NCBI GenBank assembly: GCA_049513715.1
Contig: JBEKVV010000001.1
Span: forward strand, 832,223 to 896,222
From: Candidatus Bathyarchaeia archaeon
GTDB lineage: Archaea; Thermoproteota; Bathyarchaeia; 40CM-2-53-6
Direction of reading: 5' to 3'
Length of the DNA: 64,000 nucleotides
Part shown: in pieces, positions 33,371-63,735 of the stretch
Position numbering within the stretch: the stretch's first letter is position 1
How the letters are laid out: each line of letters starts with the position of its first letter
The notes under the pieces: generated by a model
Told to the model about the DNA's origin: nothing
Databases searched by the model: none
What the model saw: the letters and a program-made list of their open reading frames with translations, nothing else
Made by a program: the position numbers and the translations under genes

Positions 33371-34426
33371 ATGAAACGAATTCTCGTAACACTCCTCGTA
33401 CTACTCTCAATAATAGCCCTAATCCAATTCTCACCCACCGTGAAGATCCCCCAAGTTTATGCACCCGGCCCAGGTCCATTGACATCGGTCACACTTTCTC
33501 TGAGCTCCGGGCCGACCGCGGAGGCGAACAACGGAGTTGCAGCAGGATCATACCAAACCCTACTCGTTAAAGTCGTAACTGCGCCGACATCTTTGGAGAA
33601 AGACGCGCAGCTTAACATAACCGTTAACGGCAATTTTATCTTCTGTCCAAACACCCTGAACGGCCCCTTCACTATTAACGCAACGAGCGCGGGAATGTAC
33701 TCTTGCCACTTCCCAATAGAATCCCTCACGAACTCTACCTTCCCTTACCCGAACGCGGCTTCAACTTACACTTTCCAGGCAACCGCCATAGTAACCGCGA
33801 ATAATTCCGGGAGCTTGATGTCCGCAGTCTTTAGTCTAACCGTCGGCCCTAATGTCGTACAAATACCCCTAGTTGCAGGATGGAACCTGATCTCCCTACC
33901 AATCGTCCCAGCAAACAACGGCATCGCAACAGTTCTTGCTTCGCAGGCTTATGGTGCAAACCTGACAAGCGTCTTGTCGTACCAAGGTGGCGCTTGGAAA
34001 TCCGCGATACTCACCGCCGCGCATACGTTTTCGGGCTCCCTTACCACAATGCAGGACGGACTTGGATACTGGATTTACATGACGAGAGCGGACAACCTCT
34101 TTGTGGTTGGGACCGTATTCGCACTACCACCAGCGCTGCCCCCTAGTTACCCACTACCGGCTGGCTGGAACCTGATCGGGTTCAAACCAGAACCTAACGT
34201 CGACATTCCACCCGGACCCTCGTGCCCTGCGTTAGCTACCTGCGCTACGTCAACTGAGACTGTGGCCACATACCTGCAAAGCATCAACACTTTCTACGAC
34301 ACTAACAACGTATGGATATACAGCAGCTCGACAGGAACATGGAGTAGAGCAACGGGTGCAATTCTTCTATATCCAGGAACCGGTCTATGGATATACCTTA
34401 GCGCAGCGAAAACGCTGTATCCATAA
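33371..34426 (+). CDS. Secreted protein: small Ig-like N-domain + GWNL C-terminal domain (copy 1)
   Basis: Signal peptide MKRILVTLLVLLSIIAL; C-terminal domain from ~33860 LVAGWNLISLP...GWNLIGFKPEP...KTLYP. Confidence 0.85.
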   Translation: MKRILVTLLVLLSIIALIQFSPTVKIPQVYAPGPGPLTSVTLSLSSGPTAEANNGVAAGSYQTLLVKVVTAPTSLEKDAQLNITVNGNFIFCPNTLNGPFTINATSAGMYSCHFPIESLTNSTFPYPNAASTYTFQATAIVTANNSGSLMSAVFSLTVGPNVVQIPLVAGWNLISLPIVPANNGIATVLASQAYGANLTSVLSYQGGAWKSAILTAAHTFSGSLTTMQDGLGYWIYMTRADNLFVVGTVFALPPALPPSYPLPAGWNLIGFKPEPNVDIPPGPSCPALATCATSTETVATYLQSINTFYDTNNVWIYSSSTGTWSRATGAILLYPGTGLWIYLSAAKTLYP

Positions 34427-34514
34427 GCTTACCTTTTTCCTTCAAACAAATTTCCGCTAGAATTACCTTACTCGACTAGAGCAAACTAGCTTGACCTGCA
34501 CAAGGATTGCCTAG

Positions 34515-35384
34515 ATGCCACGGCGAAGCTTAAGCAGAGCAAATGGATTACTATACCGAGAACGCATGACGAGTAGAGTTTCGTTGAAGGCAAGTGTCAA
34601 CAGGGTTGAGGTTGACTTTGTTGATGTTGGCGTTCCAGACACGTTGCCCGTCGTCTTGATTCACGGCTTTCCTTTCAGCCGTGAAATGTGGGACCCTCAA
34701 ATTGAGGTGCTACAGAAACGATTTCGGGTTGTCGCTTACGACCTTCGTGGGCATGGTAAGAGCGGCGTTGGCGATGGGCAGTATACGCTTGAATTCTTTG
34801 TAGACGACCTTCTCGGGCTGCTTGACCACCTGAAGATTGAGAGAGCAGTGCTTTGCGGTTTATCGATGGGCGGATACATTGCGCTAAGGACCGTTGAGAG
34901 AAACCCTGAGAGGGTTCGGGGTCTGATTCTTGCTGACACGCAAGCGAAGGCGGATTCTAACGAAACCAAGTTAAAGCGTGCGGCCGCAATCAAGTCGGTC
35001 AAAGCCAATGGCGTTAATGTTTACGCGGAAGGCTTCGTGAAGTCTGTGTTCGCCCCACAGACCCTTGCCAACAACAAGGCCGCGGTTGAGAAAATTAGGA
35101 GAATAATTCAGTCGAATTCTTCCCTCGGCATATGCGGAGCATTATTGGCTTTAGCGAGTAGGACAGATACAACTGAAGCGCTGTCAGGCATTAAAGCCCC
35201 AACGCTCATTCTTGTGGGCGAACATGACGCGCTTACTCCCCCCACAGCTTCGCAAGAAATGCACAACAAAATTCCAAACTCTGAAATTCATGTGATCCCC
35301 AACGCTGCACACATGAGCAACTTGGAGAATTCCGAGGAATTCAACAAACGCTTATTGGATTTTCTTGGTAGATTGCAAATATAG
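34515..35384 (+). CDS. Alpha/beta hydrolase (3-oxoadipate enol-lactonase-like); start possibly 34566
   Basis: HGFP, YDLRGHG, GLSMGG, GEHD, AAHMSN. Confidence 0.88.
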   Translation: MPRRSLSRANGLLYRERMTSRVSLKASVNRVEVDFVDVGVPDTLPVVLIHGFPFSREMWDPQIEVLQKRFRVVAYDLRGHGKSGVGDGQYTLEFFVDDLLGLLDHLKIERAVLCGLSMGGYIALRTVERNPERVRGLILADTQAKADSNETKLKRAAAIKSVKANGVNVYAEGFVKSVFAPQTLANNKAAVEKIRRIIQSNSSLGICGALLALASRTDTTEALSGIKAPTLILVGEHDALTPPTASQEMHNKIPNSEIHVIPNAAHMSNLENSEEFNKRLLDFLGRLQI

Positions 35385-35854
35385 TTTAGGATAGGGAAGG
35401 TGGCTCTGTCCCAGGTAACACTAGTTTGCCTCCGGCTTGTTTCGCTATCATTCTACTGACGTTACTGGAGCAGCCGGCATTAGCTTCTCAGAAATCTTCT
35501 GTAGGAGGTTGGGTAGATTAGCTCTTGTTTTCGAACTCATTTCCAGTATTTCATCCTTCTCGAGTATCTTGCGTCCTTCCGCGAGTACATTGTCCAAATC
35601 CAAGTTAGGGTTCCAAGTCGACTATCGGGGCTCAGCTGCGCTTTCCAACTTCTTCAATGACGAGTTTGTCTCTTCCCAATGGATGGATCGTAACTTCAAG
35701 CCCGTGCCTGAGGCCCAAGAAACGTGGTCTGCTGTTGAACTGTGATTTGAGGTAATGCCGAATAATTCACGATCTTGTTAGCTAGAACCTTCGAGTTAGG
35801 ACCATGGACCAGCTCTTTCTCGATTGTTCTGAGTGCGATCCGCGTTTGATTACT

Positions 35855-36900: not shown

Positions 36901-36970
36901 CCAAAACATTAGGTGGTAACCACCTTGAAGCCCTCGTGTTTCCTGCAGGGTGTAATCACCCAATCAATGG
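36901..36970 (+). repeat. ~70-bp direct repeat, copy 1 (palindromic core)
   Basis: aaacattaggtggtaaccaccttgaagccctcgtgtttcctgcagggtgt, 49/50 identical to 38008-38057. Confidence 0.9.
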
Positions 36971-38211: not shown

Positions 38212-39777
38212 TTAGGGTCTGAGGGTGGCGGGGGTCGTCATGTAGACCCAGAGCGCTTCCCCAACAGGAATCGAAGTTGAACCAGTAGCTCGAACCCATG
38301 TGCTGGTTGGGTTATCGTAAATCCAAACGTTGTTCGTATTGTAATCGCCGGTTATGCTTGTAAGGTAGACTGAGACAGTTTCAGGCGCCGTAGGGTCAGG
38401 TTGAGGTTTGAAGCCTAGCAGATTCCACCCGGCGGAAAGAGTGTAACTGGGCGGAGTCGACGGCGGGGGAGCAAACACGTACCCCAACTCGGTCAACGTG
38501 CTGGGATTGGTCACGTGAATCCAGTAACCAAACCCATCCTGCATAGTCGTCAACGGGCCCGTGCTTGGAGGCGTGAACGACTTCCATACGCCCCCCTGGT
38601 AAGACCAGACTATTGTGAAGTTGTGGCCTGAGATGAGCCCCCCAAGAAGACTACCAATCCCCTTGTACAACGGCACGAGGGGCAGCGAAATCAAATTCCA
38701 ACCCGTGACCAAAGAAATCGACGCTGAGGTCAGGTCACTAAACAGCTCAATACGGTAATTCTGAACGTCGACTACGTATACGTTCCCGGCTGAATCAGCA
38801 GCAATACCATGAGGTTCGTTGAGTTCGCCGGGAGTTGAACTGCCAGGACAGCCGGTTCCAGCGGTGGCGCAACCCCAAGCGGTAACATAAGTCCCCGTGC
38901 TCGTGAACTTCTCAACACGATTACCGCCATAGTCGGCTGCGTACACGTTCCCGGCTGAATCAACAGCAACGCTCTGCGGATAGTTGAATTCGCCGGGACC
39001 AGAACCACCCGGACAACCGTCTCCAGCGTCGGTGCAACCCCACGCCGTAAGGTAAGCACCCGTGCTAGTAAGCTTCTCGATACGATTATTCCCATCGTCG
39101 GCTACGTACACGTTCCCGCCTGAATCAACAGCAACACCAACCGGACCGTCGACATTGCCGGGACCAGAACCGGACGAAGCGATAGTCGCAATGAATGTGC
39201 CTGTACTCGTGAACTTCTCAACACGACTATTGCTGAAGTCGGCTACGTACACGTTCCCAGAGGAATCAACGGCAAGACCATACGGCTCGTTGAGTTCGCC
39301 GGGAGTTGAACTGCCAGGACAGCCGGTTCCAGCGGTGGCGCAACCCCAGGCGGTAATGTAGTGCCCTGTGCTCGTAAACTTCTCAACACGATTATTGGTA
39401 TAATCAGTTACGTATACGTTCCCTGAGGAATCAACGGCAATACCAAGCGGTCTGTGGAATTCGCCTGGACCAGAACCGGACGAACAGCCGCTTGCAGCGG
39501 TGGTGCAACCCCACGCCGTAACGTAAGCACCCGTGCTCGTAAACTTCTCAACACGATCATTGTTTTGGTCGGTTACGTACACGTTCCCGGCTGAATCAAC
39601 AGCAACACCCCACGGGCTGTCGAATTGGCCGGGATTGGAACCGTTGGTGCCCCAGGTGAGTAGGAAGTTGCAGCCGTTACAGGCTTGGACGGGAGGAGGC
39701 GGGGTGATTGAAAGACTACCGCTGACTACGGCCAGCAACAGGAGCGTACAGACGAGAACGGTTCGAAGATGGACCAA
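38212..39777 (-). CDS. Secreted NHL-repeat beta-propeller + GWNL C-terminal domain (copy 2)
   Basis: Signal peptide; six P.G.AVDS.GNVYV.D..N.RVEKF repeats; C-terminal domain 38212-~38720 ending ATLRP. Confidence 0.9.
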   Translation of the reverse strand: MVHLRTVLVCTLLLLAVVSGSLSITPPPPVQACNGCNFLLTWGTNGSNPGQFDSPWGVAVDSAGNVYVTDQNNDRVEKFTSTGAYVTAWGCTTAASGCSSGSGPGEFHRPLGIAVDSSGNVYVTDYTNNRVEKFTSTGHYITAWGCATAGTGCPGSSTPGELNEPYGLAVDSSGNVYVADFSNSRVEKFTSTGTFIATIASSGSGPGNVDGPVGVAVDSGGNVYVADDGNNRIEKLTSTGAYLTAWGCTDAGDGCPGGSGPGEFNYPQSVAVDSAGNVYAADYGGNRVEKFTSTGTYVTAWGCATAGTGCPGSSTPGELNEPHGIAADSAGNVYVVDVQNYRIELFSDLTSASISLVTGWNLISLPLVPLYKGIGSLLGGLISGHNFTIVWSYQGGVWKSFTPPSTGPLTTMQDGFGYWIHVTNPSTLTELGYVFAPPPSTPPSYTLSAGWNLLGFKPQPDPTAPETVSVYLTSITGDYNTNNVWIYDNPTSTWVRATGSTSIPVGEALWVYMTTPATLRP

Positions 39778-42659: not shown

Positions 42660-44981
42660 ATGAAATCCCTCTACTCCACTTTGGCTCTCTTGTTTCTGAT
42701 TCTGACGGTTGCAGGACCGCAACAGCCAGCAACAAGGGCATCGAGTAACGCGGCGGTATCTCCCTGCCTTTCTCCTACTCCAAGCGATTCCTCGAGACAG
42801 CAGATCAATCTCGGGGTGGAAAGGGGAGCAGTTTCGGGAAGCGTTGCCCCAGTAGTCATGAAGCACCAGGCGGCGTACAAGGGCGACTTCGCTTCGAATA
42901 CAATCCTAAACTTGGAGTTTGTGTTCAAGATCAGGAATCGTGACGCCTTCGAGGCCTGCCTCGGGTCGGTTGAGAACCCTGCATCGCCTGAGTTTCGTAA
43001 CTTCCTGAACGCCGCCACCTTGCAACCTTACATGCCCACGCCAGGCGCCAGGGATTCCGTTAAAGCGTTCTTCCAGAACTATGGGTTCACTGTAACCGAT
43101 GCGGCGTCACCCTTGGTGCTGAGGTTGACTGGGTCGGCGCAGCAAGCGGCGAACGTATTTAATGTGAACTTTGGGGTATTTTCTCAAGATAAGAACGGAA
43201 CTTTCTACTCAGCAACATCAGACCCGACTCTACCACAGAACCTTGCTGGCTTAGCCTTAGCTGTACTCGGCCTCGACAATTACACGACACCACGCCCAGC
43301 CGAGACACCTTGCGGACCGTCTGGATCTTTCAATCATCCCCTGTGCCCTCAGGCGGTTCAGGTAGGGTACTCTTTGACCGGCTTGTATTCTTCATTGTTC
43401 ATGGGGCAAGGCGTGAATGTGGCCATAGTCGATTTCCCCGGTGACCCGGGTATACAATCAGCGATAGACACGTACGACCTGCAGTATGGCCTCCCATCTG
43501 TATCAATCAACCTCGTTTACCCTGATGGGCCAATCCCCCCATCTTCCTACCTCACTAATTGGGCGGCTGAAGCGGCCATGGATGTTGAAGCCGTGCACAC
43601 TACGGCGCCGAAGGCTGGGATCGTACTTCTCTATGATACTGTGGATTTGATGAATGCTGTTGACTACGTTGCGGCGCACAATCTTGCGAGCATCGTTTCG
43701 AACAGTTGGACCTACGCCTGCAACTCCGGTTCCTTCTTCTTCTCCTGCAGTGATACTCAGTTTCCGGTTGCTTTTGTGCAATCGGTTGATGCACGATTGC
43801 AGGTTGACGCTGCACTAGGGTTGACAGTTCTTTTTGCGTCTAGCGATCAGGGCTCAAGGCCGGACGGCGGGCATATCGGGACAGAATTCCCATCCTCTGA
43901 CCCCAACGTTTTGGCAGTTGGAGCAACGAACCTTGTTATGACAGGATGCACGGTAAACAGCTGCACTAGTTATGGAGGAGAAACGGGAGCCTCGTTCAGT
44001 GGCGGAGGATACAGCGGATTCTTCGCAGAGCCCTCCTGGCAAATTTCCTACCTCGGCGCGAAGCCCGGTCGCGCTGTCCCTGATGTCTCCATGATCGGTG
44101 GGACCCCAGCTTTCTGGGTTTATTCATCGTTCGCGAGCAGTTGTGGTGGCGGAATTGGTGGAGGATGGTTCCCCTGCTTTGGCACAAGTCTTTCCACTCC
44201 GCTTTGGGCTGGGTTCTTGGCGATCGCGATTCAATTGAACGGTGGCGCGTTGGGAAACGTTGCGCCGTTGATCTATCAGCTGGGAGCCAGTGCCTTGTAT
44301 TCATCACTCTTCCACGATGTGGTTTCGGGCTCAAATGGGGATTACTCCGCAACCGCGGGGTGGGACCCAGTAACGGGCTGGGGAACCCCCCTTGCTAGCA
44401 ATTTGGCTCCGGCAATTGCGAATCTTGTTTCGTTGACTTTCAGTTATTCAATTCTCAGCGGAGGCTCTCCCCTCGCGCCAGTCCTTCACTACGTTCACGG
44501 CGGTTCTTCCCAGACCTTCACGTTGACGATTACCCCCACGTTTGTTCTGGTGGATCCGGGAACTTTCTGGTCCGTGGACCCGAACCCCCTAGGAGGTTCC
44601 ACGGGGAACGAGCGATGGTTCACAAGCCAAGTGATAAGTGGAACCGTTGCAGGCCCGCTAACGGCCAACCTCGCTTATCAGCATCAGTATAGCTTGACGC
44701 TAGAGGTTTTCCCTTCCGGTGCCGGGACTACTTCCCCCGCCTCCAGCATAACTCAATGGGAGAATGCGGGCACGTTGGTCACAATCCAAGCAACTCCGGG
44801 GGCAAGATATCAGTTCAGGAAATGGGTTGGGATTGGCATTTCATCCTACACTGGGACCAATAATGCTGTCACAATCATCATGAATGGCCCGGTGAAAGAG
44901 ACAGCCCACTTCGAAGGCACCTTTGCTCGAGGCGATTACCGCGAGGCCCCTCGGGCCACAATCATAGACACAAGATTGTAG
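42660..44981 (+). CDS. Secreted sedolisin (S53) serine-carboxyl peptidase with pro-domain and C-terminal beta-repeat
   Basis: Signal peptide; pro-kumamolisin-like region; EAAMD, SSDQG, PDVS, GTSLSTP, GWDPVTGWG. Confidence 0.88.
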   Translation: MKSLYSTLALLFLILTVAGPQQPATRASSNAAVSPCLSPTPSDSSRQQINLGVERGAVSGSVAPVVMKHQAAYKGDFASNTILNLEFVFKIRNRDAFEACLGSVENPASPEFRNFLNAATLQPYMPTPGARDSVKAFFQNYGFTVTDAASPLVLRLTGSAQQAANVFNVNFGVFSQDKNGTFYSATSDPTLPQNLAGLALAVLGLDNYTTPRPAETPCGPSGSFNHPLCPQAVQVGYSLTGLYSSLFMGQGVNVAIVDFPGDPGIQSAIDTYDLQYGLPSVSINLVYPDGPIPPSSYLTNWAAEAAMDVEAVHTTAPKAGIVLLYDTVDLMNAVDYVAAHNLASIVSNSWTYACNSGSFFFSCSDTQFPVAFVQSVDARLQVDAALGLTVLFASSDQGSRPDGGHIGTEFPSSDPNVLAVGATNLVMTGCTVNSCTSYGGETGASFSGGGYSGFFAEPSWQISYLGAKPGRAVPDVSMIGGTPAFWVYSSFASSCGGGIGGGWFPCFGTSLSTPLWAGFLAIAIQLNGGALGNVAPLIYQLGASALYSSLFHDVVSGSNGDYSATAGWDPVTGWGTPLASNLAPAIANLVSLTFSYSILSGGSPLAPVLHYVHGGSSQTFTLTITPTFVLVDPGTFWSVDPNPLGGSTGNERWFTSQVISGTVAGPLTANLAYQHQYSLTLEVFPSGAGTTSPASSITQWENAGTLVTIQATPGARYQFRKWVGIGISSYTGTNNAVTIIMNGPVKETAHFEGTFARGDYREAPRATIIDTRL

Positions 44982-45118: not shown

Positions 45119-47347
45119 CTATGGGTAGAGTACTGCGGCCGTGGTCATGTAGACCCACATGCCTTGTCCGATTAGAACGGTAACGCCATCCGTTCTGGTC
45201 CAAGTGCCTGCACTGCTGTTGTAGATCCAGACATTGTTCGTGCTATACTTTGTGGCAATGCTCGCTAGGTAGGAGCTTGCTGTTTCGGGGGCTACTGTGG
45301 GTTGTGGTTTGAAGCCGATCAAGTTCCAGCCTAATGAAAGCGCGTAGTTTGGTGGGCTCATTGCGGGCGGAATTACCCAACCCGTCGAGGGAACTGAGTA
45401 TGCCAGTGTGTCAGCTTTGGTCATGAAGATCCAGTAGCCAACTCCGTCTTGGATGGTCGTAAGGGTGCCCGTGACGTGGCCTGAAAAGGTTCCGCCTCCG
45501 GTTAACAGGGCAGATTTCCAGCTGCCGCCTTGGTAGGCAAAGATGCTTGTGAAAGAGTTGTCCACGATCAGATTTGCGAGAACGGTGTTGATTGCTGTGG
45601 TTACTGGAACTAGTGGAATGCTGATCAGGTTCCAACCAGGAACCAAGCTAATCGACCCTTGGGTGATAGTCATGAAGTCCGTTAGGAAGTTCAAAACATC
45701 AGGACTGCCCCAACCAGTTGTCAGGTCGAAGCCAGCTGCCGCTGGATATCCTTTGAAGCTTAGCGTTGGCGGTAGGACATTGGTGTTGTTGCCGACGGTT
45801 ATGTCATGGAAGGAGTGACTGTAGAGCGGGCTCATGGCGAGGCTGTAGATTGTTGGGTTGATGAAACCTACTGGGCCTGCGTTCACTTGGTTGAGTAGGG
45901 CGATGATTGCAGCCCACGAAGGTGAGCTTGCGCTCGTTCCACCAAAAACTGCCCAACGGTGAAGACTTGGAGCGATTCCTAGATAGGCTAGTACGCCGCC
46001 GACGACTGCTGCATTGAATGAAACGTCTGGGCCTAATCTACCCGATGCTGCCATAGTTCCGCTTGGTAGGGTTGCGAATGTTGCAGGTAGAGATGTCTGA
46101 TAGAGTGGTTTCGTGTATAGTGTGCTCACTCCACCGCCGGTCGAACTGCTAGATCCGAGGTCATTGTACTCATTCCAAGCACCCTCGCCCCCGTAACCAG
46201 TGGGGGTACAGCCTGTTGGTTCGCCTGGTCTCGCAGCTGTCGTGCATCCGTTGGCGCCGCCGGTCATCACTACGAGGCCTGTGTTGCAGGTTGCTCCCGC
46301 AGCGCAAGTCTTAGTGCCTCCAGGGCCTGGTGGGTAGTATTGGCCGTTTGTGCCTGTATAGGGTTGGCCTTGTGTGCCTCCGATGGCCAAGACGTAGGGG
46401 CTAGTTGATGGAGATGATGGTATCAACGCGTTTGCCTTTGGCGGAGAGAAGTATCGGTAGCCCTCGTTCGCTCCATCATCACCTGATGAGGCGAGAACGG
46501 TCCAATGGTTGGTTGCGGCGATTCTGTAGACGTTGTCTTGTGTAGCCTTAATGGAAGGGTCAAACAGTGTGCATGTTGGGAAATTGATGCATCCGACAAC
46601 GGAGTCGGGTTCCCCGAAGCTTTGCGACATTATGCTACCCATAAGGCTGGGTTGCGTGACCACCGCCATCTCAGCTGCGTTCAGGTCACTGTCGAAGTCG
46701 GAGTTCGAGACTACTAGCACTATGTTTGCGCCTGGTGCGAGTGCATGAGATGCGGTCACATCAAGCGTGATTTCCTCGGCCCATCCTACTTGGTTAGTGT
46801 TGGTGCTATTGAAGGTTGGACATGTGTCACCTACCCCGGTCCAAGTTGGCCCACATCGAATCACGAAGCTGGGTGGTGCTGGTAGGCTGAAGTTGCCGTC
46901 GTAGTTGCTCAAGTCGTTGAGTATGGTTGGGCTGCCGAAGGCGTCTACGATGACGATTGTTTGACCGGTTCCGTTGACTCCATCCATCGCCGGGACCATG
47001 CTGTATGCTGGGTTATCGGTGACATTTTCCCACACGCTCGTTCCTGTTGTAAGGGTTGGGAAGTCGTAAGCTTTCCTGATGAAGTCAGGTGGGTAGCAAA
47101 GGATAGTTCCCAAGCCACCACTCGTGCAGAATGGGGCTCCGCCAATAGGCGCAGCTGGGTTGAACACGGTTTTTGGATTGAAGGAGGGGTCGAGTAGGAT
47201 GTTGGGTGGCCGGCCGATCATGCCTCCATCCCAAGTCCATGGTGTTGGGGCTTGAGCTTTCACGAAGTTTGTTGAAGTAATTGAGATACTAGTGGTGCTG
47301 ATTAAGACAAGTAACGTTATTGCTAACAATTTCAGAAACATTTTCAT
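45119..47347 (-). CDS. Secreted sedolisin (S53) lacking a pro-domain + GWNL C-terminal domain (copy 3)
   Basis: EITLD, SSGDDG, PDVS, GGTSASSP, GFDLTTGWG; C-terminal domain 45119-~45655 ending AVLYP. Confidence 0.9.
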   Translation of the reverse strand: MKMFLKLLAITLLVLISTTSISITSTNFVKAQAPTPWTWDGGMIGRPPNILLDPSFNPKTVFNPAAPIGGAPFCTSGGLGTILCYPPDFIRKAYDFPTLTTGTSVWENVTDNPAYSMVPAMDGVNGTGQTIVIVDAFGSPTILNDLSNYDGNFSLPAPPSFVIRCGPTWTGVGDTCPTFNSTNTNQVGWAEEITLDVTASHALAPGANIVLVVSNSDFDSDLNAAEMAVVTQPSLMGSIMSQSFGEPDSVVGCINFPTCTLFDPSIKATQDNVYRIAATNHWTVLASSGDDGANEGYRYFSPPKANALIPSSPSTSPYVLAIGGTQGQPYTGTNGQYYPPGPGGTKTCAAGATCNTGLVVMTGGANGCTTAARPGEPTGCTPTGYGGEGAWNEYNDLGSSSSTGGGVSTLYTKPLYQTSLPATFATLPSGTMAASGRLGPDVSFNAAVVGGVLAYLGIAPSLHRWAVFGGTSASSPSWAAIIALLNQVNAGPVGFINPTIYSLAMSPLYSHSFHDITVGNNTNVLPPTLSFKGYPAAAGFDLTTGWGSPDVLNFLTDFMTITQGSISLVPGWNLISIPLVPVTTAINTVLANLIVDNSFTSIFAYQGGSWKSALLTGGGTFSGHVTGTLTTIQDGVGYWIFMTKADTLAYSVPSTGWVIPPAMSPPNYALSLGWNLIGFKPQPTVAPETASSYLASIATKYSTNNVWIYNSSAGTWTRTDGVTVLIGQGMWVYMTTAAVLYP

Positions 47348-48161: not shown

Positions 48162-48356
48162 CTAGGGCCTTAGTGTGGCGGTGAGGTCATTAGGATCCAC
48201 ATGGCCTCTCCGGGCACCAGCCAAGTGGACACTGTTGCTCTGGTCCACGTGCCTTGGGCGTTGTCGTAGGTCCAAACATTGTTGACATCCTACGCTCCAG
48301 CAAAGCTTGAGACATAGGATCCGACTGGTTCATTGCTCACGGTTGAAGGCATGGGC
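48162..48356 (-). pseudogene. Orphan decayed GWNL C-terminal domain (second half)
   Basis: Own translation NEPVGSYVSSFAGA*DVNNVWTYDNAQGTWTRATVSTWLVPGEAMWILMTS/ATLRP* with one nonsense codon and one frameshift. Confidence 0.85.
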
Positions 48357-48490
48357 GCCTGAAATCAGTTCTTCCAAGAGCAACCGGTAATTCCAAACGT
48401 TGTTCACCCATTGTCAGCGAAGAGCAAGCCATAGGAATATTCCGTACGGCATGAGAAGCGCTAATTACTCGTAAACGCGGAATACCAATT

Positions 48491-50929
48491 GTGAGAATGT
48501 CTTCAGTGATGATTATGCAAAGGCTAAGATCAGTTTTCTGCGCGGTAATGTTCCTCGCGCTTTCCTTCTACTTGAGTTCTGCGGGTGTAATTCCACCCAT
48601 TCTCGTACCAGTTCACGCAGCACCATTGTTCTCGACTACGCTGATCGTTCCGACCAATAATCCGGTGAGGGTCGAATACGCGAAGAAGATAACTAGAAAC
48701 ATGGTTGCCCTCGGAATTGATGCTAAACTAGTCCAACTCAGCTTCAGCGATCTTGCCAATAGGTTGTTCTTCTCCGGGGTTCCCCAGGGTGCCACTTACG
48801 CTGCTGGTGGCTACGATATTGGATTCATAGGCTGGGGCTACACCAATCCGATTCCTGACTTCGCAAGCAACCTGTACGGCTCCTCAGGTTCGTGGGCTCC
48901 CAATGGTAACAACTACGCGCTTTACAGCAATCCACAAGTGAACTCTCTATTTGATCAATTCTACGGAACAACCGACACAAACCAGCAAATCAGCACGTTG
49001 AACCAGATACAAGAAAAAGTCTTTCATGACAAACCATACAACTACATTTACGAAGCGGCAGCGCTGCTCCCGAGGGAGCAAAAGTGGCTCTCCTGGGGAA
49101 AACAGAATGTTTCCACCGTCGTGACTTTTCCTGACATTCAGCAATGGTCGGGAGGAACGGAGTTAACCCTTGCCGAGCAGAACAGGGCGCTTCCCGATAG
49201 CGGGTTAAATCCAGCCATCACGAACAAGGCCAACACATTTGCTGCTTTCTATATTTACAATCCGATAATGTTTTCCGGCGCGGGCCTTCAAGACACGGAT
49301 GGCAGGGATCAAACATTCTATCCGGCGCTCGCGACGAGTATCAGCTCAACTCCTGATCAGTTGATTTGGACGATTAACATAAGACACGGTGCAACTTTCC
49401 AGAGCGGAGTTGAGATCACAGCCGATGATTTCGTCTGGACCCGTTGGGCAATGCTGAACCCTGCCACTGCATCCGTAAACCATCAAACTGACGTGAGCGC
49501 ACTGGGTAACGTTGTTGACTTCACATTTCTTAACGGGACCACTGTTACACTTGACAATCGTGCCTCAACCAGCGATCCCATCAGGCACGGCTTGTGGAAG
49601 GCGACTGGCGAATACCAGTTCCAGTTTCATTTACCTAGCGTGAATGCCTTTACAAGGCAGACGTACGCTGCTTTTGCTCCACTGCCAAAACACATCCTCG
49701 AAAAATTCCCGTCGAATACTTGGGATACGATACCGTTCAGCACAGCCATCTCACCATACCTCTACACCTGGGACACGGGGAAATATGGTGGATCCGGATC
49801 ATATACGGCGGTTGGACCAGTTGGAGCAGGTCCATATTATCTTCAAACCTACGATTTCACAAATAACATTGCAACACTGAAGAAGTACGCCGGGTACTGG
49901 AACGCTACTGGCCTGGGAGCACTTGGCCGTTTCACCGTCGACACCTACAAAGTTCAGTGGATTAGTGACAAGGCATCAGCAATCTCTGCGCTGGAAAACG
50001 GACAAGTGAATGTTCTAGAATACAACTACCAGTTCAACGGCAATGACGCGACGTCTCTTCAGAACATGGGATTCAACGTGAACAGATCGCCCTCATTAGG
50101 TTGGCAAGAGCAAGCATTCAACTTGAAACACCCAGTATTCGGAACAGGAGTCGCCACCCCACTTGGGCAAAACGATCCTTCGCAAGCAGCGGAAGCAGCG
50201 AGGCACGTGAGAACAGCAATAAGTCATCTGATCCCAAGGAACCAAATCACGAACGATCTGCTTGGAGGACTAGGATACCCGCTAGCTAGCTGGGTCGGAC
50301 CCGGCTGGGAACAATACTATGATTCTGCGTTGGTCCCGGACAGCTATGATTTGAACGCTGCCGCGGCTGAATTGCGAGCGGCTGGATATCAGGTTGCTTC
50401 ATTCGTCGCTGAGGTTCCTCTCGTCGTCGGTTGGAACCTGATCTCTTTCCCTGTGGTTCCTGCGGCCAGCTCGATCACGGCGGTGCTTGCTCAACTTCCG
50501 CAAGGTGAGGTCACGGTTGTGTGGAGTTACACAGGTACCGGTTCCTCAAGGAGTTGGATGCTTTACAAGCCTGGAACAGGAGGAACGCTAACCACGATGG
50601 TGGATGGGAATGGATATTGGATCTTCATGTCGAGCGCGGATACCTTGTACATTTTGGGCGACATCATCGTCCCAGGTTCTCTTCCACCTGCCTACTCTCT
50701 CGTGCCAGGATGGAATCTCGTCGGGTTCAAGCCGCAACCATCGATCGCAAATGAGACAGTCCACGACTACCTCAGCAGCATTTCAGGCAAATACGATCCG
50801 AACAACGTGTGGGTTTACAACAATACGAGCACCAATTGGACTCGAGCTCAGGGTTCGACCTGGCTTGTTCCAAATCAGGCATTGTGGGTACTAGTGAACT
50901 CGACCATTACTGTGACACTGAGACCGTAG
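48491..50929 (+). CDS. Family-5 (Opp/Dpp-like) ABC substrate-binding protein, circularly permuted, + GWNL C-terminal domain (copy 4)
   Basis: PALATS..W...IRHGATFQSG.EITADD, VGAGPY, VRTAISHLIPR motifs; C-terminal domain from ~50411 ending VTLRP. Confidence 0.85.
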   Translation: MRMSSVMIMQRLRSVFCAVMFLALSFYLSSAGVIPPILVPVHAAPLFSTTLIVPTNNPVRVEYAKKITRNMVALGIDAKLVQLSFSDLANRLFFSGVPQGATYAAGGYDIGFIGWGYTNPIPDFASNLYGSSGSWAPNGNNYALYSNPQVNSLFDQFYGTTDTNQQISTLNQIQEKVFHDKPYNYIYEAAALLPREQKWLSWGKQNVSTVVTFPDIQQWSGGTELTLAEQNRALPDSGLNPAITNKANTFAAFYIYNPIMFSGAGLQDTDGRDQTFYPALATSISSTPDQLIWTINIRHGATFQSGVEITADDFVWTRWAMLNPATASVNHQTDVSALGNVVDFTFLNGTTVTLDNRASTSDPIRHGLWKATGEYQFQFHLPSVNAFTRQTYAAFAPLPKHILEKFPSNTWDTIPFSTAISPYLYTWDTGKYGGSGSYTAVGPVGAGPYYLQTYDFTNNIATLKKYAGYWNATGLGALGRFTVDTYKVQWISDKASAISALENGQVNVLEYNYQFNGNDATSLQNMGFNVNRSPSLGWQEQAFNLKHPVFGTGVATPLGQNDPSQAAEAARHVRTAISHLIPRNQITNDLLGGLGYPLASWVGPGWEQYYDSALVPDSYDLNAAAAELRAAGYQVASFVAEVPLVVGWNLISFPVVPAASSITAVLAQLPQGEVTVVWSYTGTGSSRSWMLYKPGTGGTLTTMVDGNGYWIFMSSADTLYILGDIIVPGSLPPAYSLVPGWNLVGFKPQPSIANETVHDYLSSISGKYDPNNVWVYNNTSTNWTRAQGSTWLVPNQALWVLVNSTITVTLRP

Positions 50930-52344: not shown

Positions 52345-54339
52345 ATGGTATGCAGCAAGTTCCTCTCATTTCTGGTAATTTTGTTGGCGTTCTCGATGTT
52401 CCCTCAATCGATTTCCGATTTGAGGGCAGCACCAACTAGGCAGAACCACTCACCTGCGCCATCCGGAGACAAAAGCTTTGGAATTGCATGGAAATCAAAA
52501 GCTCCTACCGAGCATGCTCGGCAATTCGAACTGAACATAACCTCTCTCGCCACACCACTAGCCCAGAATGACCCCAGCGTCGCCGATAACCCGCTGGACT
52601 CTGGCAACATCATAATCGCCGATATTGAGCATATCGACACTAATTCCGGACCGACAAGCCACATCAAGATTCACTCCTCACTTGACAAGGGAGCAACTTG
52701 GCTCACCCGGGAAGCGCCCAACAGTACCACAGGCTACCCATCATACTACTTCGCTTCAGCTTCGTTTGACGGAGGAGGAAATGCGTACATTGCGTACCTG
52801 GATTCATGGGGCGAAGTCACGGTTACGAAATCCTCTGACAAAGGTCTGACTTGGTCTAATCCAGCGATCGTAGTGCAACCGTTAGGAAACAATGAAACAG
52901 ACGACTACCCGAAGATCACTGTCGACAGATGGTCTTCAAGCCCGCAAGTCGGTGCGATATATGTCACATTTACTCGCCTCAACTACACCGCCAATACGCG
53001 GTCTATCCTGTTTTCTCGTTCGACAGATACGAGCATGACATGGTCAAAGCCAGTGACAATAAGTTCGCTGCCCGGTGCCGATTGTCCGAACTCACCTACC
53101 ATCTGCCGAAAGGAACAGGGGCCAATGCCGGCTGTAGGTCCCGACGGCACAATTTACGTAGCGTTCTACGATTCGACATCGGACGGCATACCAGGGCTAA
53201 ACGGGGTCCCAATTGAAACAGGGGTATTCCAGATAATTCTCAGACAATCAACAGACGGAGGTACAACCTGGTCAGCGCCATCAATTGCTGCAACACTCCC
53301 TGAAATCGGACTCTTTCTGCCGCCGAACAATCTATGGGTATGGCCAAGCCAATTTCCAATCATTACGACGGGACCGAACGGCTATGTCTATATTGTGACG
53401 ACAGCTCGCCCATCAACTACTGGAACATCACGAATCTGTATCTTGAGATCATTCGACCACGGAAAGAGTTGGACCCCATGCGTTACAGTCAATGATGACT
53501 CTTCAGGAAGAGGACATTTCTTCCCTTGGATTACGGTTCGAAGAGACAATAGCATTCACGTAATCTTCGGAGATAGGCGCGACGATCCATCCGACCTTAA
53601 GTACAATATCTATTACACGTACTCGAATGATTTCGGCACCAGTTACACGACAAATCGTAGACTCACGACGATTGAGTCTGACCCGACCTGGAACTTCGGC
53701 GACTATGTCGGTGATTACTTCGGGCTCTCGTCGACAGATCAATTCGTCAACGCTGTTTGGACAGACACAAGAAACGCAGCGATTTCCGGACAGGATATTT
53801 TCGCCACATTTGTTGATGCGCCTCTATACTCGATAAGACTGCTTTCAGGGTGGAACCTGATCTCGCTACCGCTTATTCCCGACAATCCGTCTATTACGAT
53901 CTTGCTTAGTACGCAGATTCAAACAAAGAACGTGGTTGTCGTATGGACATTTTCATCCACCTCAAGATCCTGGTTGGTGTTCATCCCAGACAAGGCTAGC
54001 ACGTTTACAACCATGAAGGACGGAGCTGGGTATTGGGTCTACATGCAGACTGCTGACACATTGTATCTTGACGGCACCGTTATCGCGCCTGTATCTACCC
54101 CGCCATCATATTCTCTAATTCAGGGCTGGAACTTGGTGGGCTTCAAACCGCAACCATCTATTCAGAGTGAGAGTGTCGGTCAGTATTTGTCCAGCATTAC
54201 AGGCAACTATGACCCAAACAACGTCTGGGCATACGATAACACCTCAGGGGGTTGGATACGAGCGCACGCAGGCTACATGCTAGAACCCGGGCAGGCATTG
54301 TGGATCCTAATGACTGCCCCCGCTACGCTTCGACCATGA
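52345..54339 (+). CDS. Secreted BNR/Asp-box (sialidase-like) beta-propeller + GWNL C-terminal domain (copy 5)
   Basis: S.D.G.TW Asp-boxes (SLDKGATW, SSDKGLTW, STDGGTTW, SFDHGKSW, SNDFGTSY); GDYFGL; C-terminal domain from ~53830. Confidence 0.88.
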   Translation: MVCSKFLSFLVILLAFSMFPQSISDLRAAPTRQNHSPAPSGDKSFGIAWKSKAPTEHARQFELNITSLATPLAQNDPSVADNPLDSGNIIIADIEHIDTNSGPTSHIKIHSSLDKGATWLTREAPNSTTGYPSYYFASASFDGGGNAYIAYLDSWGEVTVTKSSDKGLTWSNPAIVVQPLGNNETDDYPKITVDRWSSSPQVGAIYVTFTRLNYTANTRSILFSRSTDTSMTWSKPVTISSLPGADCPNSPTICRKEQGPMPAVGPDGTIYVAFYDSTSDGIPGLNGVPIETGVFQIILRQSTDGGTTWSAPSIAATLPEIGLFLPPNNLWVWPSQFPIITTGPNGYVYIVTTARPSTTGTSRICILRSFDHGKSWTPCVTVNDDSSGRGHFFPWITVRRDNSIHVIFGDRRDDPSDLKYNIYYTYSNDFGTSYTTNRRLTTIESDPTWNFGDYVGDYFGLSSTDQFVNAVWTDTRNAAISGQDIFATFVDAPLYSIRLLSGWNLISLPLIPDNPSITILLSTQIQTKNVVVVWTFSSTSRSWLVFIPDKASTFTTMKDGAGYWVYMQTADTLYLDGTVIAPVSTPPSYSLIQGWNLVGFKPQPSIQSESVGQYLSSITGNYDPNNVWAYDNTSGGWIRAHAGYMLEPGQALWILMTAPATLRP

Positions 54340-54410: not shown

Positions 54411-56102
54411 TTAAGGTCGGAGTGTCGCGCCGCTTGGCGATGTGACTAGGATCCACATTGCCTGGCCCGGCACTACCCAAGTCGATGATGTCGCGCGAAT
54501 CCATGCGCCACCTGCGTTATCGTATATCCACACATTGTTCTGATCGTAACTTCCAGAAATGCTCATCAGATATTGTCCAATTGTCTCGTTTTGGATTGTG
54601 GGCTCAGGTTTGAAGCCGGCCAGATTCCAGCCCGCAGCCAAGGAGTAGCTAGGCGGAGTTGAGGCAGGCGGTATGACATACCCCACAACCGTCATGTTCA
54701 CCGCGTCATTCACGTACACCCAGTAACCCTTCCCGTCAACCATCGTCTTCAGCGCTCCCGAACTGGGTGGTGTGAAGAAAGACCAAGCAGGCGAAGGCGT
54801 AGGAGAATAACACCAAACAATCTTCAGCTCATGCAATTGAATCAACGGATTGAGAAGCTTGTCAATTGAGGTCTGTGCAGGCGCGATGGGGAGGGAGACA
54901 AGGTTCCAACCGGCCTGGAATTGCAGCAGGAACCCAGTTAAACCTGAAGAAGCCTGATACATCAAGACACGATTATCATGAACGTCGCTAATCCACAAAT
55001 CCCCGACTCCATCAAACCCCACGCCAATCGGTAGACTCAGTCCAGTCTGTGTTGTCGCCGCTGCGTTTCCGGTGAAGTCAGCTTGACCAATGACCACGTT
55101 CGCCGCCATACCCGTCGCTAAGGCAGGCCCAAACTTCAACACACGAGCATTAGCGCAATCAGCAACCCACATGTTACCGGACGCATCAAACCCTAATCCC
55201 CTGGGGTGGTGGAGCCGGTCCGAAGCTGTGCCGGGTACACTGGTAACGAAGTCCGGGTGCCCGATGACCAGAGTCGCCGCCATGCCAGTAGCGAAGGGAG
55301 GCTTGAACATCAAAATACGATTATTCACTTCATCAGCGACGCAAAGGTTTCCAGCCGAATCAAAGCCTAAGTCATAAGGCCAATTGAAACCGGTTTGATT
55401 CAGGGCACCCCCGCCCCAGCTGAAGCTCTTGTGGCCGATGACGAGACTGGCAGCCATCCCATTGGCAAAAGGAGGCTTGAACATCAAAACACGATTGTTT
55501 TCTTGATCGGAGACCCATAGATTGCCAGCCGAGTCGAAAGTTAGAGCAGACGGATTGTCGAACCCGGTCTGTGTTGTTGCCTGACCATTGTGTGTGAAAT
55601 CGGATTGTCCGATTACTGTATTCGCTGCCATGCCATTGCTGAACGGGGGTTTGAACATCAACACACGATTGTTCAGTGTGTCCGCGACCCACAAGTTTCC
55701 GGACGGGTCGAAGGTAATACCATACGGATGATCAAGCCCGGTCTGACTTGTCACTGCACTGGAGTGAGTGAAATCTGTTTGACCTATGACGAAACTGGCC
55801 GCCATCCCATTGGCAAAAGGAGGCTTAAACATCAACACACGACTATTTTGAGCGTCCGCGACCCACAAGTTTCCTAGAAAATCAAAACCCAAACGAACCG
55901 GATTATACAAACCTGTTTGAGTCGTACTGAAACCGGAACTTACAAAATCCGTCTGGCCGATCACCAAGCTTGCTGGCATGCCTGTTGTAAAGGCGTACGC
56001 ATGGATCAGTAGACTCAACAAGATTGATGTTGAAATGAAGGCGCAGAGTACATGCTTCCTAACCCGCAAGCCGCCCCTAAGATTCCCTTCAACCATACGC
56101 AC
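54411..56102 (-). CDS. Secreted NHL-like repeat protein (VIGQ.DF type) + GWNL C-terminal domain (copy 6)
   Basis: Six GM.A..VIGQ.DF.......TGL..P..L.FD..GNLWV.D..N.RVLMF repeats; C-terminal domain 54411-~54930. Confidence 0.88.
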   Translation of the reverse strand: MRMVEGNLRGGLRVRKHVLCAFISTSILLSLLIHAYAFTTGMPASLVIGQTDFVSSGFSTTQTGLYNPVRLGFDFLGNLWVADAQNSRVLMFKPPFANGMAASFVIGQTDFTHSSAVTSQTGLDHPYGITFDPSGNLWVADTLNNRVLMFKPPFSNGMAANTVIGQSDFTHNGQATTQTGFDNPSALTFDSAGNLWVSDQENNRVLMFKPPFANGMAASLVIGHKSFSWGGGALNQTGFNWPYDLGFDSAGNLCVADEVNNRILMFKPPFATGMAATLVIGHPDFVTSVPGTASDRLHHPRGLGFDASGNMWVADCANARVLKFGPALATGMAANVVIGQADFTGNAAATTQTGLSLPIGVGFDGVGDLWISDVHDNRVLMYQASSGLTGFLLQFQAGWNLVSLPIAPAQTSIDKLLNPLIQLHELKIVWCYSPTPSPAWSFFTPPSSGALKTMVDGKGYWVYVNDAVNMTVVGYVIPPASTPPSYSLAAGWNLAGFKPEPTIQNETIGQYLMSISGSYDQNNVWIYDNAGGAWIRATSSTWVVPGQAMWILVTSPSGATLRP

Positions 56103-56659: not shown

Positions 56660-56674
56660 ACCTCTCAGGCGCTG

Positions 56675-60184: not shown

Positions 60185-60243
60185 TGTTCCGGACCACAAA
60201 TCTGATTAAGTGGGATTCCCCGAAATGTATCAGGCATGTTCGC

Positions 60244-60498: not shown

Positions 60499-60887
60499 AA
60501 CTGCTTGATACAATGGTTCTCGTAAGCGCGATGAATCCGAGCAGCAGATATCACAAGACTGGAATGGCATATCTAGGAGCGCTTCGGGCCTCAGAAGCAA
60601 CTCGCGTCCCAACATCGACCCTGATCGAATTCGACCTCGTAATGCGAAATAACAAGTACACTGAGGCCGAGATTGCGGACACTTGGGCCGCACTTGTGCC
60701 TTTCGTGGAAGGGAAGTTTGTGGCTACCGCCCCCTCCGCCCACTTGATAGCTGCCGGAATGAGGGTGAAGGGGCTGACGTATTTCGACTCGTTGATAACC
60801 GCGCTTGCCAAGGAAATGAACGCCATTGTGATAACACGAGACGATGCGATATCGCAGTACGTTGGCACCGAATGGGAGGCAAGTTAG
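60495..60887 (+). CDS. vapC: VapC PIN-domain toxin
   Basis: LLDTMVL, STLIEFD, LTYFDSLITA, ITRD. Confidence 0.9.
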   Translation: MKLLDTMVLVSAMNPSSRYHKTGMAYLGALRASEATRVPTSTLIEFDLVMRNNKYTEAEIADTWAALVPFVEGKFVATAPSAHLIAAGMRVKGLTYFDSLITALAKEMNAIVITRDDAISQYVGTEWEAS

Positions 60888-60995: not shown

Positions 60996-61229
60996 CTAAG
61001 GTCTTAGTGTTGCGCCTGAAGGTGATGTTGCAAGGATCCACATGGCTTCTCCTGGCATACGCATCGTTGTGCTTGTCGCCCGAATCCATGCTCCACTTGT
61101 ATTATCGTAGATTCACACGTTGTTCTGGTCGTAGCTTCCTGCAATGCTGATCAGGTATTGCGAAACGGTCTCGTTCTGGATTGTGGGTTGAGGTTTGAAA
61201 CCAACCAGGTTCCATCCTGCGACGAGAGA
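60996..61229 (-). pseudogene. Orphan GWNL C-terminal domain (second half) with one nonsense codon
   Basis: Own translation SLVAGWNLVGFKPQPTIQNETVSQYLISIAGSYDQNNV*IYDNTSGAWIRATSTTMRMPGEAMWILATSPSGATLRP*. Confidence 0.88.
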
Positions 61230-61598: not shown

Positions 61599-62051
61599 CG
61601 CTGGCTGATTGACGTTTCTGTGATTCAGGCATTCGAATCAGGTGTTTTGAGTCTATCAGACTTCTACTTTACCGGGGACGATTACCGATACCGTTTCGAG
61701 ATCGAAGCGAAGCAGCGTTTCATCGACCTCATTCGTGAACGGTTCAACGCGGGCGTAGCATGCAAAGGCCGAGTTCTGAAATGGGATACTGTTATCGAGC
61801 AGAAGGCCAACGAGATGGGCCGATTTCTATTGGGGAAATCACTGACGCTTGATTTTGCAGAACCCGCTCCGAGGCTAGTGAGGAATGATGACCGAGAAAT
61901 GCGAGCTAAGATTCTAGCGTTGACATCGTCGCAGGCTAAGAGCCTTGGCCTCGAAAAGAGTACGCTACACTATTTGCGTCTCCACGCGAAGAGACAACGG
62001 TTTGAAATTTACGGGAAGACTCACGAAAGACTCGAAGCACACTTACCCTAA
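61599..62051 (+). pseudogene. cas1: C-terminal fragment of a casposase-type (solo) Cas1 with C-terminal HTH
   Basis: RWLIDVSVIQAFESG....DFYFTGDDYRY...AKQRFI...FN.G..KG...WDTVIEQK..E..RFL.GK...LDF.EP.P; HTH AKSLGLEKSTLHYLR; N-terminal two-thirds absent. Confidence 0.75.
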
Positions 62052-62265
62052 GTGATTTCTCCATCGAAGCAATTGTGGTAAGGGAAGCTAAAGAAAGAGA
62101 CCTCGGCCGTGAGAAAAAGAGGTCTGAAAATTGGTCTCGAAGGATATCAGGGAGCTTTACGGTCTGAGTACTTACTATGCATACTTACAGTACGTATGGT
62201 CTGGAAGCCTCGTAATTGTTAATACTGCAAACGTGAGTAACTTCTGCCGCTGAGAAGCTGTTTTC

Positions 62266-63735
62266 TTGGCTCATCGTGATCTTCGAACGGTTCTCGTCTG
62301 TATGCTTGTATTACTGGTCGTAGTCAGCGGCACTCTTTCAGCCACCCCGCTTCCTCTCGTGCATGCCTGTAGCATCTGCAACTTCCTCCTAACCTGGGGT
62401 TCACTTGGTACTGGTAACGGCCAATTCCACTATACGCGAGGTGTTGCTGTAGATCGTTCCGGGAACGTGTACGTAACCGACCAGGGCAATAGTCGTGTTG
62501 AGAAGTTCACTAGCACGGGCATATACATAACCCAGTTGAGTGGGTCTAGTCCCAACCAGCTCAGCTATCCGAGTGGTGTTGCTGTGGACGCTTCCGGGAA
62601 CGTGTACGTAACCGACACAGGCAATAACCGTGTTGAAAAGTTCACGAGCACAGGCACATTCATAACCAATTGGGGCTCATCCGGTTCGGGTAACAGCGAA
62701 TTCGCGTCTCCGGGGCCTTATGGGGTTGCTGTTGACAATTCCGGTAACGTCTACGTGGTCGACCGTGGCAATAATCGTATCGAGAAATTCAGTAGCACAG
62801 GCACATTCACCACCACTTGGGGTCACTCTGGGAACCAGAATGGTAACTTCACCAATCCGTATGGTGTTGCTGTTGACAGTTCCGGGAACGTGTACGTAAC
62901 CGACACAGGCAATAACCGTGTTGAAAAGTTCACGAGCACAGGTGCATTCATACTCGCTTGGGGTTCTACTGGTTCTGGCAACGGTGAATTCGACGTTCCA
63001 GTCTACGTTGCTTCTGACCCATACGGGAACGTGTACGTAGCTGACTATAGCAATGGTCGGGTTCAGAAGTTCACTGGCACAGGCACCTACCTATCCCAGT
63101 GGGGTTCACCTGGTTCTGGTAACGGCGAGTTCAACGGTCCGTATGGTGTTGCTGCGGATAGCTTCGGCAACGTGTACGTAACTGACCAAGACAATGATCG
63201 TGTTGAGTTATTTGGCGACACAACCCTCGCGTCTATACCGCTGGTTGAGGGTTGGAATTTGATTTCGCTTCCAATCGTCCCAGTAAGCACGGCAATAGCG
63301 AAGGTTCTTAACGATTTGATTGTCGGCAACAATTTCACAATCGTCTGGTCCTATCAGAGTGGCAAGTGGAGTTCAGCTAGTTTTAGTAACGGCAAGGTTT
63401 CCGGCTCGTTAACAACAATGCAGGACGGGTTTGGGTACTGGATATACATGACCCAGCCGAGTAACTTGAAGGTTCTCGGGTACGTGGTTCCGCCCGTTTC
63501 CTCGCCGCCGACTTATTCGTTATCGGCGGGATGGAATCTGATCGGATACAAGCCGGAACCCGACCCTACGGCGACTGAAACCGTCTCGACGTACCTTACT
63601 AGCATCACGGGAAGTTATGACTCGAATAATGTCTGGGTTTACACTAGCGGTTCATGGGCAAGGAATCCAACAAGCCTCACGCCGGGTGAAGGCATGTGGA
63701 TTCTGGTAACTTCCTCCGCAACTCTCAGGCCGTAA
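62266..63735 (+). CDS. Secreted NHL-repeat beta-propeller + GWNL C-terminal domain (copy 7); paralog of 38212..39777
   Basis: Signal peptide; six NHL repeats; C-terminal domain from ~63232 ending ATLRP. Confidence 0.9.
   Translation: MAHRDLRTVLVCMLVLLVVVSGTLSATPLPLVHACSICNFLLTWGSLGTGNGQFHYTRGVAVDRSGNVYVTDQGNSRVEKFTSTGIYITQLSGSSPNQLSYPSGVAVDASGNVYVTDTGNNRVEKFTSTGTFITNWGSSGSGNSEFASPGPYGVAVDNSGNVYVVDRGNNRIEKFSSTGTFTTTWGHSGNQNGNFTNPYGVAVDSSGNVYVTDTGNNRVEKFTSTGAFILAWGSTGSGNGEFDVPVYVASDPYGNVYVADYSNGRVQKFTGTGTYLSQWGSPGSGNGEFNGPYGVAADSFGNVYVTDQDNDRVELFGDTTLASIPLVEGWNLISLPIVPVSTAIAKVLNDLIVGNNFTIVWSYQSGKWSSASFSNGKVSGSLTTMQDGFGYWIYMTQPSNLKVLGYVVPPVSSPPTYSLSAGWNLIGYKPEPDPTATETVSTYLTSITGSYDSNNVWVYTSGSWARNPTSLTPGEGMWILVTSSATLRP

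Follow-up and report, generated by a model that had tools for sequence, protein, structure and literature searches.

The DNA analysed here is a 64,000-nucleotide stretch (the window) from a Candidatus Bathyarchaeia archaeon, taken from positions 832,223 to 896,222 of contig JBEKVV010000001.1 in assembly GCA_049513715.1. Between positions 33371 and 63735 of the window lie seven open reading frames (ORFs) whose products end in the same domain, here called GWNL, and a neighbouring gene encodes a protein with a second domain of about 95 residues, named APDG after a motif within it. The feature is real, and the GWNL domain most likely belongs to a docking pair not described before, with the APDG protein as its other member.

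An earlier reading of the same DNA (the sequence-only reading) had proposed seven secreted proteins ending in one duplicated domain, and all seven ORFs were confirmed with a common C-terminal GWNL domain in each. The domain is 169–190 residues long, measured from eight residues before the first GWNL, and pairwise identity among the window copies is 38–60%, with E-values down to 1e-57. A profile-profile comparison of half 1 against half 2 gives an hhalign probability of 99.4% (E 6.5e-22), and judging from this alignment the two halves are homologous. The nine copies counted in the sequence-only reading correspond to these seven full domains plus two half-2 remnants (Table 1). N-terminal segments and transmembrane (TM)-like stretches were judged by a hydropathy test: the N-terminal segment is hydrophobic in all seven carriers and no TM-like stretch follows residue 50, in line with the claim that the domain brings no TM helix. 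The cargo ahead of the domain had been called unrelated in all seven proteins; it is indeed diverse, but falls into five kinds (three NHL propellers, a sedolisin-like protease, a family 5 solute-binding protein, a BNR propeller and a beta domain without a family), and the cargo genes 38212 and 62266 are paralogues with 65% DNA identity across 1.5 kb. The protease is called sedolisin-like on the basis of what we take to be S53 motifs.

In the whole genome of this archaeon, which is 99.4% complete with 8.8% contamination, there are 13 full GWNL copies, all of them C-terminal, and four remnants. Three of the 13 are on two small contigs. The carriers at C9:19950-20792 and C11:3-1175 share an identical start and are cut at contig ends, and could be strain variants or reflect an assembly break; the count of 13 may include strain material because two small-contig copies share their start at contig ends. 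A hydrophobic N-terminal segment is found in 10 of the 13 carriers, two of the other three being truncated by contig ends, and by hydropathy none of the 13 has a TM-like stretch after residue 50. The terminal proline, described earlier as invariant, is present in 13/13 copies of this genome but is the last residue in just 102 of the 150 best database representatives and lies outside the interface predicted below, and on these grounds the terminal proline was ruled out as the signal.

The GWNL domain takes the place of other anchors. The window solute-binding protein (48491) has a paralogue, 56% identical over 591 residues, with a TM helix and a basic tail at its end, and the GWNL-tagged propeller at C2:423543 has two paralogues that carry PEF-CTERM. 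The secreted sedolisin at 42660 lacks the domain; its 50–56% identical homologues P0189, P0041 and P0073 do carry it, and loss or swap of the tag is probable in this case. Swapped anchors, the untagged sedolisin and the remnants together show that the GWNL tag has been gained, swapped and lost. The idea of an attachment module at the C-terminus, absent from the catalogues and standing in for a membrane anchor, is supported. Two exported, untagged homologues of GWNL cargo, at 42660-44981(+) and C5:96174-97355(-), have a similar short tail in which Y-R-x-x-P-R-A-T stands exactly 14 residues before the stop. This is possibly a second C-terminal tag; no further case was found near the C-terminus of the stored proteins or in the loci searched.

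The APDG gene is transcribed divergently from the first GWNL gene (Table 1). It lies 392 nt outside 33371..63735, was missed in the sequence-only reading and carries the only APDG domain of the genome. Its tail scores 24.7 and 28.2 bits against TIGR03024, above the cut-off of 23, and is thus of the PEF-CTERM type. A search of this genome with the exosortase/archaeosortase profile (PF09721), which matched 1 of 14 control genomes, found none, and the PEF tail may therefore be no more than a membrane helix. The smallest APDG relatives consist of a signal peptide, the APDG domain, a Thr-rich linker and a membrane tail, and one partner elsewhere has PGF-CTERM. Across 60 partner ORFs a hydrophobic segment stands immediately before the P-x-x-P motif in 59. 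Family scans found a stalk and an anchor on the partner and no catalytic domain. Next to the partner gene is an exported hydrolase-like protein (29909-31564, minus strand) with a PEF-type tail, and the domain ahead of that tail resembles the partner's by eye.

Table 1. Coordinates of the tagged genes, the remnants and the partner gene in the window.
Feature	Position	Strand	GWNL domain	Remark
Partner (receptor) gene: signal peptide, APDG domain, linker and stalk, PEF-CTERM membrane tail	32092..32979	-		
PEF-CTERM motif, TM helix and basic tail of partner	32104..32184	-		TIGR03024 above cut-off
APDG domain, 95 residues, predicted prealbumin-like beta-sandwich	32572..32856	-		opens with P-x-x-P right after signal peptide
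Cargo 1: small family-less beta domain	33371..34426	+	33857-34423	divergent from partner gene
Cargo 2: NHL propeller	38212..39777	-	38215-38724	
Secreted sedolisin with pro-domain	42660..44981	+		without GWNL domain
Cargo 3: sedolisin-like protease	45119..47347	-	45122-45658	weak Peptidase_S8 match
GWNL half-2 remnant	48179..48358	-		in-frame TAG
Cargo 4: family 5 solute-binding protein	48491..50929	+	50408-50926	
Cargo 5: BNR/Asp-box propeller	52345..54339	+	53827-54336	copy used for both models
Cargo 6: NHL propeller	54411..56102	-	54414-54929	
GWNL half-2 remnant	60999..61229	-		in-frame TGA
Cargo 7: NHL propeller	62266..63735	+	63229-63732	cargo 2 paralogue

Neither domain has a name in the databases searched. 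The GWNL domain has no match in Pfam, NCBIfam or PHROGs, its best E-value against PDB sequences (0.3) is not a match, and in the Atlas it occurs in unnamed clusters only, in keeping with the earlier failure to place it in a characterised family. No description of it was found in the literature; one under another name is possible, since most subscription papers and bioRxiv supplements lie outside such searches. For the APDG domain, Pfam gave one weak He_PIG match in 1 of 12 partner domains and nothing else, the best E-value against PDB sequences was 0.066, PHROGs gave none and the Atlas only unnamed Chloroflexota clusters. AlphaFold2 predicts the GWNL domain of 52345 as a two-repeat, mainly beta structure with a mean predicted local distance difference test score (pLDDT) of 97.5 and a predicted template modelling score of 0.91. 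Its closest structural neighbour, with the whole domain as query, has Z 3.7 and a root mean square deviation (rmsd) of 3.1 over 74 aligned residues (RCK_C or beta-grasp-like folds were considered), and Foldseek returned zero matches at E≤0.001. The predicted fold is possibly new, which the absence of a clear structural match does not in itself establish. The APDG model is a prealbumin-like sandwich (pLDDT 85; best Z 8.2, rmsd 2.8, 85 aligned).

At E≤0.001 the GWNL family comprises 11,074 representatives at 50% identity. Among the 150 best of these, 144 have no more than 10 residues between the end of the domain and the C-terminus and a marginal TM-like stretch is seen in one, and a hydrophobic N-terminus is found in 51 of 89 longer proteins with a Met start, many of the others looking like fragments. 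A C-terminal position, which the sequence-only reading had proposed to check, is the rule but not universal: internal copies exist in P0009, P0067, P0146, L081 and L083. Many database entries of 105–113 residues span just the last two thirds of the domain, and broken copies seem common in relatives. The system had been thought archaeal, which does not hold. It is common in Dehalococcoidia, about half of the sampled genomes of that class being GWNL-positive, and the GTDB loci come from Dehalococcoidia, Anaerolineae, Patescibacteria, Archaeoglobus, Hadarchaeum, Methanosarcinales and others. Closer to home the distribution within genus and class is patchy, with the domain in 6/22 genomes of the same genus, 0/18 other relatives and 23/301 genomes of the class.

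To relate the two domains we used a set of 78 GTDB loci, drawn from the best 80 of 347 confirmed stretches, some of them from one genome, and centred on GWNL genes, so that linkage is measured from the GWNL side. The APDG profile was built from Bathyarchaeia sequences only, so that divergent forms may escape it. In nine of nine single-copy GWNL carriers whose surroundings were retrieved from other Bathyarchaeia families, an exported protein with an APDG domain at its mature N-terminus is encoded by the next gene. An APDG domain is present in 57 of the 78 loci, with no match in a reversed-sequence control. One locus with the pair (L084) belongs to the cultured Methanohalophilus profundi. When the 14 Bathyarchaeia loci are left out, an APDG start lies on the same strand at most 700 nt downstream in 50 of the remaining 64. 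Of the 14 loci outside this count three end less than 200 nt from the GWNL gene, and a genome-wide search for 10 of them placed a partner elsewhere in four.

The same association is seen in whole genomes, and the check on a co-distributed partner gene proposed in the sequence-only reading thus came out in favour of the APDG gene. In the genus of this archaeon, its own genome excluded, the APDG domain occurs in 4 of 6 GWNL-positive and 0 of 16 GWNL-negative genomes. The exceptions are one genome that is 75% complete and G014, which is 100% complete and has no partner; its five GWNL matches are all partial or lack a signal peptide. In the class as a whole the figures are 15/23 against 5/278, a comparison that is partly circular because 11 of the 15 genomes supplied sequences to the profile. 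In all five of the seemingly APDG-only genomes a divergent single GWNL unit stands immediately upstream (three by profile, two by eye). A single-unit divergent form ends proteins of about 1000 residues directly upstream of partner genes in family f22 (L044, L045, L046, L047 and L048). In Dehalococcoidia, the class of G311, the domain is found in 80/93 GWNL-positive and 16/108 negative genomes, and in the class of G316 in 30/55 and 5/96 respectively; in G316 itself 31 GWNL matches stand beside a single detected partner, which adjoins a GWNL gene.

A model of the complex between the GWNL domain of 52345 and the APDG domain of the window scored 0.84 (individual runs 0.85, 0.84 and 0.82), and the best of three controls scored 0.02. 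The score mark for complexes is reached by 116 of 157 solved pairs and by 2 of 215 mismatched pairs, counts that hold only roughly because analysis-made alignments served as input. The runs share at least 90% of their contacts, with a partner pLDDT of at least 86. Since neither domain has a relative among PDB sequences, recall of a solved pair by the model is unlikely. In the modelled interface, partner residues 2–8 are contacted by W10, W41, F43, W50 and W71 from half 1 and by W102, W135, W144 and W160 from half 2, with further contacts at partner residues 46–50 and 83–87. The conserved tryptophans of both halves are thus predicted to grip the prolines of the partner. Across 61 natural gene pairs the first proline of the motif (P3) is kept in 58, the other three being gaps, and P6 in 52; on the GWNL side W10 is kept in 56, Y43 in 52, W50 in 56, W71 in 54, W102 in 60 and W160 in 56. 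Covariation between the domains in these pairs (effective number 51) has a mean z of 0.71 at 25 listed contacts, above nearly all random sets; the columns are nearly invariant and no contact is among the top 25 pairs.

We give a probability of about 0.7 to the reading that GWNL and APDG form a two-part, non-covalent surface tether, cohesin-dockerin-like in logic and apparently built from unrelated folds. It builds on what is observed of the domain, its position, the anchor replacement, the gene linkage, the co-occurrence and the conservation of the motif, to which the predicted folds and complex add the proposed contact. The cargo (proteases, propellers, solute-binding protein) would be exported by its own N-terminal signal peptides, with the GWNL domain as a C-terminal plug. 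The partner would be exported likewise and kept in the membrane by its C-terminal helix, and cleavage of its signal peptide would put P-x-x-P at the mature N-terminus with the beta-sandwich next to it. The two GWNL halves may then form a single aromatic groove that grips both prolines and makes additional contacts to the sandwich. A single anchor gene could in this way serve 13 interchangeable cargo genes, and a gene would enter the cargo set by gaining a GWNL tag in place of its own anchor. For this scheme we infer binding in the cell, the export route, the cleavage site, the stoichiometry and the surface location.

Several findings weigh against a tether of this kind. The modelling covered one GWNL–APDG pair, and the conserved tryptophans could also serve the fold. 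Among complete partner ORFs from non-Bathyarchaeia loci just 25 of 53 have a plain TM tail, and others end in CFI-box, dockerin-like, unnamed or GWNL domains. No partner was detected in 25/55 GWNL-positive genomes in the class of G316, 11 of which have at least 10 GWNL matches, nor in 13/93 in the class of G311, and seven distant carriers in the archaeon's own class gave no partner at E 0.001 and one marginal match with a wider profile. In some Dehalococcoidia the APDG domain outnumbers GWNL (14 to 2 in G364, 13 to 2 in G416), so it may have other uses. The first proline is absent from several partners in the class of G316. A distant Bacteroidota relative has a GWNL-like domain 226 residues before its C-terminus and a separate type IX secretion system (T9SS) tail. 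Kinship among the genomes means that the Fisher P values overstate the co-occurrence. For the subfamily in the window the conclusion is firm, and for the whole GWNL superfamily it is weaker.

The GWNL-rich genomes without a detected partner, together with that Bacteroidota relative inside a T9SS cargo protein, would also suit a domain that attaches to an envelope glycan or to the S-layer itself, as carbohydrate-binding modules and SLH domains do, with the APDG gene as just a co-inherited surface-protein neighbour. Abundant exposed aromatics are typical of sugar binders. However, the next-gene linkage is fixed in Chloroflexota, Patescibacteria and several archaeal groups, whose envelopes differ greatly, the model sets the aromatics on the conserved prolines of the partner, and carbohydrate-binding folds did not stand out among the structural neighbours, the best of which reached Z 3.7. 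We regard direct binding as unlikely.

Slightly less likely again is that the pair is a head-to-tail polymerisation joint, in which proteins with an N-terminal APDG and a C-terminal GWNL domain assemble into chains, fibres or a lattice that starts at a membrane-anchored base and GWNL-only cargo forms the terminal units, as in WxL pili. Such APDG...GWNL fusions without a TM tail do exist (P0082, P0117, L072, L086, L114, L151 and L152) and may serve as adaptors or as subunits of a polymer; the gene order in L072 and L086 is cargo-GWNL, fusion, further APDG gene. Against this, fusions make up 3 of 60 partner ORFs in the cross-phylum set, and the contact in the model is that of a proline peptide lying in a groove. 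The genome studied here has a single APDG domain, on an anchored protein, and no fusion, so a polymer cannot form by this route here; a joint of this kind is more plausible in the lineages that have the fusions. In the weakest alternative the domain would act in export or processing, much as the C-terminal domain of T9SS does: a membrane factor would recognise it, after which it would be removed or passed on, and the APDG protein would be a transient chaperone or receptor. This would suit the C-terminal position in the 150 best representatives and the single partner common to many cargoes, but we consider it improbable, and the export or sorting role suggested earlier doubtful, given the ordinary N-terminal signal peptides of the cargoes, the internal copies, the separate T9SS tail of the Bacteroidota relative, the patchy distribution within the genus (6/22) and a partner that is stalk and anchor without a catalytic domain. 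The loci that were read, in which no systematic search was made, also showed no conserved gene for a peptidase or a channel.

Taken beyond the window, the tether reading leads to a broader proposal, to which we give only slightly better than even odds: GWNL and APDG would be a general docking code common to archaea, Chloroflexota and Patescibacteria, in which a twin-repeat domain lined with tryptophans, its fold possibly new, recognises a proline motif that signal-peptide cleavage exposes and whole exoproteomes are displayed from one anchor, with APDG...GWNL fusions perhaps building chains or envelope layers. How uncultured archaea and Dehalococcoidia hold exported enzymes at their surface is, to our knowledge, largely unknown. 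The present analysis names both halves of a candidate retention mechanism for a very large unannotated family and reduces the question to the binding of two proteins, with predictions at the level of residues. If the proposal is true, the GWNL tag marks surface-retained exported proteins in thousands of genomes, and the two domains would make a compact orthogonal pair for docking that has no obvious calcium motifs.

The window contains other features besides the tagged genes. A 51–55 bp element, 90% identical between its copies at 33143-33193 and 42464-42514, lies upstream of 33371 and 42660; it has no Rfam match and two copies in the genome, and since the 55-bp element occurs only twice, a shared upstream element for all cargo genes was ruled out. 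Rfam gave no match anywhere in 30000-64000. A 68-bp repeat with small hairpins is found at 36904-36970 and 38008-38075, with two further partial copies on C2 and C9. Between two GWNL genes, at 51131-52309(+), is a 392-residue protein with a twin-arginine signal and no family match. Three fragments resembling the T-arm of tRNA, at 56379, 60044 and 60095, lie near PIN and MazE-type toxin-antitoxin genes (40731 and 60142-60887), which suggests a variable region with old integration sites. ARAGORN found no whole tRNA gene in the window with default settings, and relaxed settings gave noise.

Among known systems the closest in logic is cohesin-dockerin, in which exported enzymes bear a tag and a cell-anchored protein bears the receptor and which includes non-cellulosomal pairs in archaea; PMC13487519 and PMC5244752 set out this logic and report its presence in archaea. 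The likeness lies in a duplicated tag on many unrelated exported enzymes, a receptor domain on an anchored protein and mix-and-match cargo, with GWNL–APDG binding as predicted here, and of the analogies offered by the sequence-only reading the one with dockerin appears to be the right one. The parts differ. The Dockerin_1 profile has no match at E≤0.1 in the seven carriers, and the tag is a 170-residue, mostly beta domain rather than a small calcium-binding helical repeat. The Cohesin profile is unmatched by 12/12 partner domains and by the whole partner, whose receptor domain is predicted as a 95-residue prealbumin-like sandwich with an N-terminal P-x-x-P peptide as the predicted epitope. Foldseek rows for the APDG model from cohesin-dockerin entries are chains of about 156 residues, which we took as X-dockerin chains. 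There is also one receptor domain per anchor here, so no multi-site scaffoldin.

The WxL system offers a second parallel. In bioRxiv 10.64898/2026.10.17.759780 it is reported as a C-terminal attachment module confined to Bacillota and assembled by chaperone donor-strand exchange, and it shares with GWNL a tryptophan-marked C-terminal module of similar size, variable payloads and a clustered membrane-anchored partner. However, the carriers have no WxL match at E≤0.1, the partner matches neither DUF916 nor DUF3324, and the GWNL domain is predicted to be complete on its own (see the pLDDT above). The SLH profile is likewise unmatched by GWNL carriers. PEF-CTERM is shared at the level of the partner only; the cargo differs from PEF-CTERM and PGF-CTERM proteins in having no TM tail (13/13 carriers) and no CTERM match. 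The type A C-terminal domain of T9SS (TIGR04183) resembles GWNL in being a folded beta domain with which a variety of exported proteins end, but it is unmatched in the seven carriers by a model that does match a true T9SS tail, and the Bacteroidota relative keeps the GWNL-like domain and its true T9SS tail as separate domains.

SH3, WW and EVH1 domains are readers of proline-rich motifs that grip a P-x-x-P peptide between stacked aromatics. The GWNL domain would differ from them in being extracellular, in its larger and different fold and in a groove placed between two repeats, and no such fold was among its structure matches. The plug-and-socket logic is familiar from cohesin-dockerin and WxL; since the components and their predicted mode of recognition are undescribed, we rate GWNL and APDG as a new system.

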